Positions 57,711 to 59,683 of a DNA stretch of 64,000 nt are shown here, piece by piece. The notes below the pieces were generated by a model. That model had not been told where the DNA came from, searched no databases, and saw only the letters and a list, made by a program, of their open reading frames with translations. Position 1 is the stretch's first letter. Every line of letters begins with the position of its first letter. Source of the DNA: Candidatus Saccharimonadales bacterium (GTDB lineage Bacteria > Patescibacteriota > Saccharimonadia > QS-5-54-17); NCBI GenBank assembly GCA_040903985.1, contig JBBDUI010000002.1:671469-735468 (forward strand), in the 5' to 3' direction. The translations under genes and the position numbers were made by a program.

Positions 57711-57977
57711 ATGAAAACGCCTAGTAGAGTTCAACCAAGTGAAGCGGACAGTGTCTACTTCTTAAAATTACTACTCTTCTTTATCTTGGGGGCTATCTGG
57801 CTCTACCTACCTTTCACCTCCGTCCCGCTTCCGATCGGTTTTGTGCTGGGAGTGCTGTTTGCCCGTCATGACCACTTCCAGGTGGATCGGAAAATCGAAT
57901 ATGCCATATTATTGGTAGCTGCTATCTTAAGTCTGGTAGCTCCGATAGGGATTGTACTCGACGCTACAGCTCTATGA
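57711..57977 (+). CDS. small two-TM membrane protein (88 aa) inserted between rpsJ and rplC
   Basis: Hydrophobic ORF; its stop overlaps the start of the downstream gene (ATGA). Confidence 0.5.
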   Translation: MKTPSRVQPSEADSVYFLKLLLFFILGAIWLYLPFTSVPLPIGFVLGVLFARHDHFQVDRKIEYAILLVAAILSLVAPIGIVLDATAL

Positions 57978-59683
57978 AACGAATCGGGCGGCTGTTTACC
58001 AATTATTTAAGCCGACGATCGACTCGGCTTGTCCTAGCGGCAGTAGCTTTACTCATAGCAGCTTTAGCCTTGACATGGGTTTACTACCAACCGGTGCGAG
58101 CCGAAGTCGACTACACCGCCTGTGATATTAGCTATGGTGAGGTGGTAGGTGAATGGAGTGGTAGCGAGGATAGCGAGTGGGATCGTTCCGGTGTGCACTA
58201 TCAAGTGCGCCGTTTCTCACTCCAGGCGCATGCACCTGATGTGGCTCGGCCCAATACAATTGAGGCCGTACCGTCCCGACTTAGTACCGGAGGAGGGGAT
58301 GGCTGTATCGAGGAGTTCGACGAAACTATAGATACGACGGCCGAGTTCTATCGCTACAACGGAGCCCGCACTCAGGCTATTCGCTTCGGTGTGCCCGATC
58401 TGGGTGATACCAATACGGGTGGCAGGTTTTTCCGTCCGATCAGCCGAGCAGAGAGTAGGGCTGATTTAAGCGTTCCGGTTTATGCCACTCATCCTACAGC
58501 GGCCGCAGTTTGGGTTGATGATGGAGGGAGTGCCGAGATACTAATAGAGGCCGAGGCGACACCGCTCTGGTGCATTAATGGTTCAGACTGTCACGATATT
58601 ATCGACCATGAGGCCGCTCCGTATCCAGCGAAAGGGCAGGGCTATCAGTTTGTGACCGATAACTGTCCGGCGGCAATTAGCTGTAACGCTGAATGGTACG
58701 ATGCCACTATTCTTTCCCGCCTCACTACAGCTGAGGCTACCCCAGTAGCACCTTTCGATCTTCGACTCTCGGCTGTTTCAACCTGGGCCCCGACTATCGG
58801 GACTGAAATGTTGTTGGTCTTTGCCTACCCTACCGAAGTAGAGTTAGATGTAGCCTTGAATGCTGAGAGTGATACGTTCGATCCAGGTGCTAGTTTCGAC
58901 CTCACCGCTCATATCTCTAAGGTAGGACCTCTTGTTACGGAGGGACAGCTCCAGCTAGAGACAGCCGAACAACCTGCCGACTCCCCGGCCTCAACCCGGG
59001 TGTTAACAGCCACAGAGTTAGCGACCTTAAATCAAACCGATGTGCTTAAACTTACATTTCCGGTCACTATTGCTCCAACTGCTGAGCGCGGAGCCTGCTA
59101 CCAGCTACAGTTAGCTCTTACTGGTGTTACGGAAAATCGATCTATAACTGGATTTGACTACTGCATTACTCCGCCGGATCCTGAACCTACCTCACCAGCA
59201 TCACTCGCAACACACTTTACCTATAGTGTTAATACCCGGGGTGAGACGGAGTCTGATTTGAGCCAGTTTAAGGCTCAAGCGGCCGCTACCTTGAATGATG
59301 CACGTGGTTGGGCACAGGCCGGGGTTTCAACTACAGCTGTATCGAGCGGTGGCGATTTCATTTTATGGTTAGCTGCACCAGATACTATGACTAGCTTCTC
59401 ATCCGCCTGTTCGGCCGAATACAGCTGTCGGGTGGGGCAGAACGTGGTAATTAACGATGCACGATGGCAAAACGCTACGTCGGCTTGGAACTCGGCTGGT
59501 GGTAGTTTGCGTGACTACCGTCATATGGTAATTAACCATGAGGTGGGACATTTCTTAGGTCATGGTCATTATGGCTGCCCAGCTCCAGGTGCTCGCGCCC
59601 CTGTGATGCAACAGCAGTCGATCGATTTAGATGGCTGTAAGTTTAACCCCTGGCCGTTGCCGTTCGAACTAGCTGCAATTTAA
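57974..59683 (+). CDS. membrane-anchored/secreted protein (569 aa) with a C-terminal metzincin-type zinc-binding motif; putative metalloprotease
   Basis: N-terminal signal anchor ([17 protein letters not shown]). Near the C-terminus, [17 protein letters not shown] fits HEXXHXXGXXH, followed by a possible Met-turn (APVMQ). The rest has no recognisable domain. Confidence 0.55.
   Translation: [569 protein letters not shown]

Follow-up and report, generated by a model that had tools for sequence, protein, structure and literature searches.

A predicted membrane-tethered, snapalysin-like metzincin of the DUF3152 family encoded between rpsJ and rplC in Candidatus Saccharimonadales

Introduction

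What does a protein of 569 amino acids (aa) do whose gene is placed between the ribosomal-protein genes rpsJ and rplC of a Candidatus Saccharimonadales bacterium? The question is raised by a DNA stretch of 64,000 nucleotides (nt), here called the window (assembly GCA_040903985.1, contig JBBDUI010000002.1, positions 671,469 to 735,468 of the forward strand). Saccharibacteria are obligate episymbionts on Actinomycetota and have no amino-acid synthesis of their own, and in this group hydrolases at the cell surface readily suggest themselves as candidates for host feeding or for remodelling of the contact site. An initial annotation, made from the letters of the window, had read the product as a signal-anchored protein with a metzincin-type zinc motif, a candidate Met-turn methionine and a long N-terminal region without recognisable domain. 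The protein is 100% identical to the NCBI entry 'DUF3152 domain-containing protein [Candidatus Saccharimonadales bacterium]', and its assignment to DUF3152, a known but uncharacterised family, is already present in that database.

The analysis presented here indicates that the protein is probably an extracytoplasmic, membrane-tethered zinc endopeptidase with a metzincin fold of the snapalysin-like type, acting on a protein or peptide substrate. Snapalysin (MEROPS M7) is the small neutral protease of Streptomyces (ScNP/SnpA; PDB 1C7K, 1KUH and 4HX3).

Results

The zinc-binding motif and its conservation

The open reading frame (ORF) of the initial annotation was confirmed, the peptide quoted there being aa 517-546 of the product, and the HEXXHXXGXXH motif was located at aa 522-532 in the form HExGHxxGxxH, which agrees with the metzincin consensus HEXXHXXGXX(H/D). 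Across the 127,996 six-frame positions of the window there is a single instance of the pattern HE..H..G..H, where composition alone would lead one to expect 0.0045. A genome scan recovered 581 relatives of the protein, and the locus, tree and Actinomycetota comparisons below refer to the best 80 of them by similarity. In alignments of 67 and of 80 sequences, H522, E523, G525 and M545 were invariant, as were C479, C485, C535 and C555, while H526, G529 and H532 were at least 90% conserved. Since the zinc-site residues and Met545 are invariant or at least 90% conserved in both alignments, the motif is, as judged by conservation, not a chance occurrence.

The downstream methionine pointed out in the initial annotation is Met545, the candidate for the conserved methionine that metzincins carry beyond the third ligand; it lies within APVMQQQS and is bracketed by the conserved pair Cys535/Cys555. 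Both HExGHxxGxxH and APVM were kept in all 14 homologues with the same long architecture (long forms below). Conservation in the DUF3152 family does not extend to the Tyr that follows the third ligand. Twelve cysteines stand at equivalent positions in all 14 long-form proteins, with the apparent pairs 50/111, 200/206, 231/237, 375/397, 479/485 and 535/555. The conservation of the catalytic residues together with that of the 12 cysteines speaks in favour of an active enzyme that resides in oxidising surroundings outside the cytoplasm.

The predicted fold of the catalytic domain

The C-terminal domain matched Pfam DUF3152 (PF11350) over aa 413-554, which cover positions 30-179 of the 206-position profile (E = 2e-25; 90-91 bits, the cutoff being 25.1), and all 80 aligned relatives likewise matched this family. 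Matches of the protein to Pfam metallopeptidase families all stayed below threshold (Reprolysin_5 E = 0.14), with the Peptidase_M10 and Reprolysin models giving E = 0.085 to 8.9, all below their cutoffs. For Peptidase_M10 the value was E = 0.65 with 10.3 bits against a gathering threshold of 24, the best E among the 80 relatives being 0.0048, and Peptidase_M7 was absent among the 6 Pfam families matched by the catalytic domain at E <= 10. Sub-threshold Reprolysin or Peptidase_M10 matches recurred in 45-47 of the 80 family members and are the expected echo of the active-site helix. A search of NCBIfam with the protein returned nothing useful (serralysin E = 0.18).

The full-length AlphaFold model had a predicted local distance difference test score (pLDDT) of 79.5, with values above 90 in the C-terminal domain. 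Foldseek with this model returned generic immunoglobulin (Ig)-like sandwiches alone, by which the catalytic domain was masked, and aa 405-569 were therefore modelled separately with the 80-sequence alignment, giving a pLDDT of 93.8 and a predicted template-modelling score of 0.89. In the numbering of this domain model, the chain runs through five β-strands, a backing helix (25-36), the HExxH helix (108-123), a coil with the third His and the Met, and one C-terminal helix. Metzincin catalytic domains are described as a five-stranded β-sheet, a backing helix and an active-site helix followed by a C-terminal subdomain after the motif Gly (PMC3427221), and the domain model shows the metzincin architecture as given in that work and in PMC3890501.

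The Foldseek top 50 in the PDB for the domain model consisted exclusively of metzincin catalytic domains, including the matrix metalloproteinases (MMPs) MMP-1, -2, -3, -7, -8, -10, -11, -12 and -13 and profragilysin, with template-modelling scores (TM-scores) of 0.42-0.60 and a probability of ~1.0. The model superposes on snapalysin at a root-mean-square deviation of 2.4 Å and also on MMPs, which is consistent with, though not proof of, the Met-turn and zinc geometry. The presence of a metzincin-like fold around the motif, on which the initial annotation had made its reading depend, is thereby borne out in the prediction, and the metzincin interpretation is supported by the fold model and by motif conservation alike. 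The catalytic domain is confidently predicted to adopt a metzincin fold that is closest to snapalysin. Its close structural neighbours are, every one, protein or peptide endopeptidases, and no LAS-type peptidoglycan peptidase was found among them.

Membrane topology

The first 18 residues carry 6 positive charges (Arg/Lys) and are followed by the only strongly hydrophobic segment of the protein, aa 19-38 (20 residues; Kyte-Doolittle maximum 2.52), which is spanned by a helix at aa 14-38 in the full-length AlphaFold model. Because of this basic tail and single hydrophobic segment, aa 1-38 fit an N-in/C-out signal anchor, or else a long uncleaved signal peptide, in agreement with the signal-anchored N-terminus of the initial annotation. 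An extracytoplasmic location also fits the relatives, where the short forms are anchored by a transmembrane segment, the Nocardioides form has a signal peptide and one homologue is fused to S-layer-homology (SLH) domains. The features of the locus are collected in Table 1.

Table 1. Features of the protease gene and its surroundings in the window, and features of related loci (positions in the window unless a locus is named).
Feature	Locus	Position	Strand	Basis or remark
M14 carboxypeptidase orthologue, full-length	window	14916-16883	-	E = 7e-116
rpsJ	window	57285-57608		
Terminator-like hairpin, 16-bp perfect stem, 4-nt loop, U-rich tail	window	57622-57657	+	directly after rpsJ stop (57608)
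TM88, 88-aa membrane protein, 2-3 hydrophobic segments	window	57711-57977	+	ORF, hydropathy, 335 homologues
Long-form DUF3152 gene, complete ORF	window	57974-59683	+	ATG start, 569 aa
Basic tail (aa 1-18) and hydrophobic helix (aa 19-38)	window	57974-58087	+	hydropathy, translation, model helix 14-38
N-terminal ectodomain module, aa 40-404	window	58091-59185	+	12-cluster phmmer search, no Pfam, conserved Cys
Ig-like β-sandwich, aa 261-398, best-modelled part of the module	window	58754-59167	+	pLDDT mostly 77-97
Catalytic domain, aa 405-569, DUF3152, predicted minimal metzincin fold	window	59186-59680	+	Pfam match; domain model
Putative zinc-binding/catalytic motif HExGHxxGxxH, aa 522-532 (H522, E523, H526, G529, H532)	window	59537-59569	+	conservation; on long model helix
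Met545, candidate Met-turn methionine, in APVMQQQ (59597-59617)	window	59606-59608	+	13 residues after third His
Near-consensus sigma-70 promoter TTGACA-18-TACAAT with TG	window	59685-59714	+	11/12 matches; 2 nt past protease stop
rplC	window	59823-60548		
Slot contents besides TM88: 133-aa ORF only	L011			
Slot contents besides TM88: CTP synthase and two unknown genes	L010			
Slot contents besides TM88: VanY, short DUF3152, unknown genes	L008/L009			
Slot contents besides TM88: short DUF3152	L027, L058, L083, L091			
Slot contents besides TM88: two DUF3152 copies	L063			
Slot contents besides TM88: long DUF3152 and three tail-fibre-like genes	L001			
DUF3152 relative in Actinomycetota	L047, L050, L051, L060, L062, L064, L069 and others	around 8000-8500		

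The N-terminal module and other architectures of the family

The N-terminal module contains 8 conserved cysteines and is modelled mostly as β-structure, in which two loops (aa 145-182 and 203-226) are rich in indels and of low confidence. When 1.84 billion representatives were searched exhaustively by phmmer for relatives of aa 40-404, 12 clusters only were retrieved, 11 of which are full-length proteins of 546-649 aa with the same architecture, the remaining one being a 198-aa fragment. No Pfam match to the module was found in any of 13 members, and no PHROG family matched the module or the catalytic domain, so that the absence of a recognisable domain noted in the initial annotation holds at the sequence level. 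The Foldseek matches of the full-length model in the PDB were PapD/ASH-like, CARDB (3idu), macroglobulin MG and Sec63 Ig-like domains (E ~1e-4 to 1e-3, TM-score to target <= 0.56), and these presumably belong to the modelled sandwich at aa 261-398.

What is new here is that aa 40-404 constitute, as far as the database comparisons reach, an orphan cysteine-rich β-module which is peculiar to a small lineage of Saccharimonadales. Long forms share 36-40% identity in the module and 62-65% in the catalytic domain, and the alignment of the module has no stretch conserved enough for a pattern scan. The long forms are monophyletic in a neighbour-joining tree of catalytic domains calculated without support values, which suggests that the module was acquired once. 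The module would serve as a stalk and/or a targeting (target-binding) adaptor, and a role as prodomain may also be considered.

The other family members differ in what precedes or follows the catalytic domain. Short Saccharibacteria forms (225-260 aa) have a transmembrane anchor and ~60 low-complexity spacer residues, and the Nocardioides form has a signal peptide and an Ig-like repeat. A metagenomic protein of 394 aa (P0009) has its DUF3152 catalytic domain fused to C-terminal SLH repeats, giving a cell-wall-tethered architecture. For Saccharibacteria bacterium QS_5_54_17 the deposited annotation contains DUF3152 only as a 178-aa fragment (P0019), and tblastn found a near full-length long form on presumably the same contig (query aa 24-569; L015 8001-9611, PXOU01000019.1); the short entry probably stems from a misplaced start or from a frameshift in the deposited sequence.

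Short paralogues, M14 partners and the relatives in Actinomycetota

DUF3152 is represented by more than 1000 clusters in Saccharibacteria, and most family members are located outside the gap between rpsJ and rplC. A further new observation is that most short Saccharibacteria DUF3152 genes lie directly downstream of a gene for a membrane-anchored M14 carboxypeptidase with a Big_5 domain, with which they apparently share an operon. Where genes had been called, in L004-L007 and on one further contig, 2-50 nt separate the two; in total, an M14 gene adjoins DUF3152 in ~20 loci. This pairing suggests that an endopeptidase and a carboxypeptidase digest extracellular or host-surface protein. No second DUF3152 copy was found within the 64-kb window.

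Most short Saccharibacteria DUF3152 genes are followed in turn by a gene for a transmembrane-anchored, coiled-coil-like protein (254-310 aa, no Pfam match). Such a protein was observed both at an M14 locus (L004 5738-6502, the unk254 type) and between rpsJ and rplC (L008 5860-6792, the unk310 type), and may form a third part of the M14-DUF3152 unit. A protein of this type is absent beside the long form, and tblastn at 1e-5 gave no similarity of the N-terminal module to unk254/unk310 or to the extra genes of L001.

Another new finding is that, among the best 80 relatives, proteins of Nocardioides, Aeromicrobium and uncultured Actinomycetota share 57-61% identity with the catalytic domain. The Pfam DUF3152 scores are 73-86 bits for the Actinomycetota relatives and 76-91 bits for the Saccharibacteria ones. 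Because both groups score alike and far from the Pfam core, in comparison with E = 2e-107 for Mycobacterium tuberculosis Rv3207c, Saccharibacteria and Nocardioidaceae appear on these scores to share a divergent DUF3152 subfamily. The identity and the like divergence of both groups suggest that the gene passed between the phyla, from Saccharibacteria to a lineage of their host phylum or the other way. The actinobacterial clade nests among Saccharibacteria clades in the neighbour-joining tree, which was built from a similarity-biased sample, without support values and without canonical actinobacterial sequences. In Nocardioides caeni the DUF3152 gene stands in an unrelated context between cysM and murI, and no paper in the literature search documented Nocardioides as a host of Saccharibacteria.

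The gap between rpsJ and rplC

In the window the order of genes is rpsJ, TM88, protease and rplC, and the TGA stop of TM88 overlaps the ATG of the protease gene (ATGA). This overlap is not conserved, the two genes being separated by 10 nt in L001 and by 42 nt in L003. Likewise new is that the order EF-Tu, S10, TM88, long DUF3152 and L3 is found in each of the seven independent loci with a long form, namely the window, L001/L002, L003 and L013-L016 (43-45% protein identity). TM88 has 335 homologues of 44-73% identity, which lie between S10 and L3 in every locus examined. Because it is present with or without DUF3152, the comparison of loci marks TM88 as a core Saccharibacteria gene and not as a dedicated partner of the protease. 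No Pfam match above cutoff and no match in the PDB or among PHROGs was obtained for it; its conserved loop reads HDHFQIDRKIEY, and the only signal is that 19 of 59 members resemble part of Acyl_transf_3 below threshold.

New, too, is the observation that the gap between rpsJ and rplC is a variable accessory-gene slot across Saccharibacteria, with the contents given in Table 1. In L001 the three genes between long DUF3152 and rplC (7871-10672; 291, 259 and 349 aa) are cysteine-free and without Pfam matches, share 'VGIG..P..KLHV' motifs, and comprise, in the first two, paralogues that are 34% identical. These tail-fibre-like genes may be mobile or phage-derived cargo.

The fold of 57609-57710, which contains the hairpin after rpsJ, had an energy of -33.2 kcal/mol (z = -3.8), and none of 200 shuffles was as stable. 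The hairpin was not called by a scan for consensus terminators; comparable post-rpsJ hairpins were seen in L001 and L016 and not in L003 or L013. A TTGAC[AC]-17/18-TAnAnT element follows the long gene in all seven loci (with an upstream TG in 6 of 7), and the promoter at this place in the window presumably drives the rplC operon. From these signals, rpsJ and rplC appear to belong to separate transcription units in this lineage, and the protease gene is placed at an operon boundary and not inside a transcription unit because of the post-rpsJ hairpin and the conserved pre-rplC promoter.

Discussion

Proposed function and alternative explanations

We infer metal binding, catalysis, surface exposure, the role of the N-terminal module and the substrate of the protease as follows. 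The basic tail and hydrophobic helix would insert the protein N-in/C-out in the membrane of the monoderm Saccharimonadales cell, and the disulfide-rich β-module of 365 residues, including its Ig-like sandwich, would set the catalytic domain off the membrane. The C-terminal 165 residues would form a minimal snapalysin-like catalytic domain in which His522, His526 and His532 hold the zinc, the water bound to it is activated by Glu523 as general base, and Met545 lies beneath the metal site, with putative disulfides C479-C485 and C535-C555 stabilising the domain outside the cell. Together with an M14 carboxypeptidase, such an endopeptidase could break down protein outside the cell or on the host surface, to the benefit of an episymbiont that is auxotrophic for amino acids. 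A protein or peptide is the most likely substrate by analogy with all characterised metzincins, and it is favoured, with fairly good confidence, over a cell-wall peptide, to which only a small share of belief is given, because the close structural neighbours are all protein or peptide endopeptidases with no LAS-type peptidase among them.

Several observations weigh against this interpretation. By sequence, no solved protease was found in the PDB with either the single protein or the 80-sequence profile, the sole profile matches being SLH domains that come from the tail of one homologue in the profile. There is no significant sequence similarity to snapalysin either: hhalign against 1C7K gave 25.6% probability over 37 columns, pairing the HExGHxLG motif, both Cys and NP[WY]P..E, with Met545 not aligned to snapalysin Met103. 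A V-R-A|E site at aa 41-44, just past the hydrophobic helix, is a possible signal-peptidase site, and cleavage there may release the protein instead of leaving it anchored. In the window the M14 orthologue has neither a DUF3152 nor an unk254 partner downstream and lies 41 kb from the protease gene, unlinked to it. The literature on DUF3152, PF11350 and Rv3207c contains no functional or biochemical data: 'PF11350' is mentioned nowhere, Rv3207c is the sole DUF3152 member named, in in-silico adhesin and vaccine screens, and the literature on Saccharibacteria metalloproteases likewise gave no functional data. Finally, VanY in L008 and the M14 neighbours would suit a cell-wall peptide as substrate just as well, and the SLH fusion too is in keeping with it.

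The last point leads to the alternative that survives best, though we regard it as improbable, namely a cell-wall hydrolase acting on peptidoglycan stem peptides or cross-links, which would either remodel the wall of the Saccharibacteria themselves or attack that of the actinobacterial host where the two cells are in contact. In L008/L009 the rpsJ-rplC slot is shared by DUF3152 and a VanY D-Ala-D-Ala carboxypeptidase (120 bits), the M14 enzymes beside DUF3152 in the ~20 loci and the homologue fused to cell-wall-binding SLH domains would suit such a hydrolase, and so would a subfamily common to Saccharibacteria and Actinomycetota. It is the exclusively endopeptidase character of the structural neighbours that favours a protein or peptide substrate here.

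A more specific version of the protease interpretation is doubtful. According to it, the long form would be a host-directed surface protease whose N-terminal module is a receptor-binding adaptor to the actinobacterial envelope, the ~60% identity to Nocardioidaceae would stem from gene exchange, and the slot would tie expression of its cargo to the growth-rate-controlled ribosomal cluster.

That the protein has kept a protease-like fold without catalytic activity, and serves as a surface adhesin or in a structural role, is quite unlikely. Such a role would accord with the literature record of Rv3207c, which consists solely of in-silico adhesin predictions, with the Ig-like/CARDB-like sandwich of the module, which is typical of adhesins, and with the faster evolution of the module relative to the catalytic domain. 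Pseudo-enzymes normally lose catalytic residues, however, and here H522, E523, G525 and Met545 are invariant and H526 and H532 at least 90% conserved over more than 80 sequences from two phyla at ~60% overall identity; the conservation of catalytic residues across two phyla is what makes a silent pseudo-protease adhesin unlikely.

Still less credible is a holin/SAR-endolysin-like lysis cassette (SAR, signal-arrest-release), or prophage remnant, in the ribosomal operon. TM88, with its 2-3 hydrophobic segments, does overlap by its stop the start of a gene for a signal-anchored hydrolase and has a weak NCBIfam match to a phage holin model (E = 0.027), and tail-fibre-like genes occur in the same slot in L001; but TM88 is vertically conserved and occurs without DUF3152 in L010 and L011, the overlap gives way to gaps in L001 and L003, and no metzincin endolysin is among the fold matches. 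This candidate was rejected, since TM88 belongs to the core genes irrespective of DUF3152 and no PHROG match was found for TM88 or for either part of the protease.

A YbeY-like metallo-endoribonuclease with a ribosome or RNA function, to which the position within a ribosomal-protein gene cluster might point, has next to no likelihood and was rejected, given the membrane anchor and the 12 conserved ectodomain cysteines, the rank of YbeY matches below 26 true metzincins, which leaves YbeY short of the closest structural match, the operon-boundary position between hairpin and promoter, the unrelated cargo of the same slot elsewhere (CTP synthase, VanY, tail-fibre-like genes), and the location of most family members elsewhere in genomes.

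Significance

If the interpretation as a membrane-tethered endopeptidase holds, the uncharacterised DUF3152 family, including M. tuberculosis Rv3207c, gains a testable assignment as a minimal snapalysin-like metzincin with a predicted His3 zinc site. In addition, a rare long architecture with an orphan ectodomain module has been defined, fixed in the rpsJ-rplC slot of a small Saccharimonadales lineage. The unusual features are limited to this lineage-specific module of 365 residues and to the fixed position between two ribosomal-protein genes, so the work is an incremental functional annotation and current ideas are not overturned. The rpsJ-rplC slot and the subfamily of Saccharibacteria and Nocardioidaceae may interest genomicists of the candidate phyla radiation more than the protease itself.

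Comparison with known proteases

With snapalysin, the predicted catalytic domain shares a C-terminal subdomain of one helix and a Met close to the third ligand, at 13 residues here and ~10 residues in snapalysin (PMC3890501), and thus shows the minimal fold. Unlike in snapalysin, where 1C7K has HETGHVLGLPD, the third zinc ligand is predicted to be His532 and not the Asp of M7; there is also an extra conserved pair, Cys479/Cys485, the Met and the second Cys stand ~10 residues further apart, and in contrast to the small secreted enzyme the protein has an N-terminal anchor and the 365-aa module. By its sequence, the protein therefore falls outside family M7 on the third ligand and on sequence homology.

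Compared with the matrixins and adamalysins (MEROPS M10 and M12B; MMPs, ADAM sheddases and atrolysin), identity is 12-18%, the C-terminal subdomain is much smaller and the anchor is N-terminal (type II) rather than C-terminal, and no evidence was obtained here for structural Zn or Ca sites or for a cysteine-switch prodomain.

The protein resembles other DUF3152 members, e.g. M. tuberculosis Rv3207c, in that it begins with a signal for export or anchoring and continues with a spacer of variable kind. It differs from Rv3207c, with its reported E = 2e-107, in belonging to the divergent subfamily of 73-91 bits, and from the typical Saccharibacteria members of 225-260 aa in carrying the orphan 365-aa N-terminal module.

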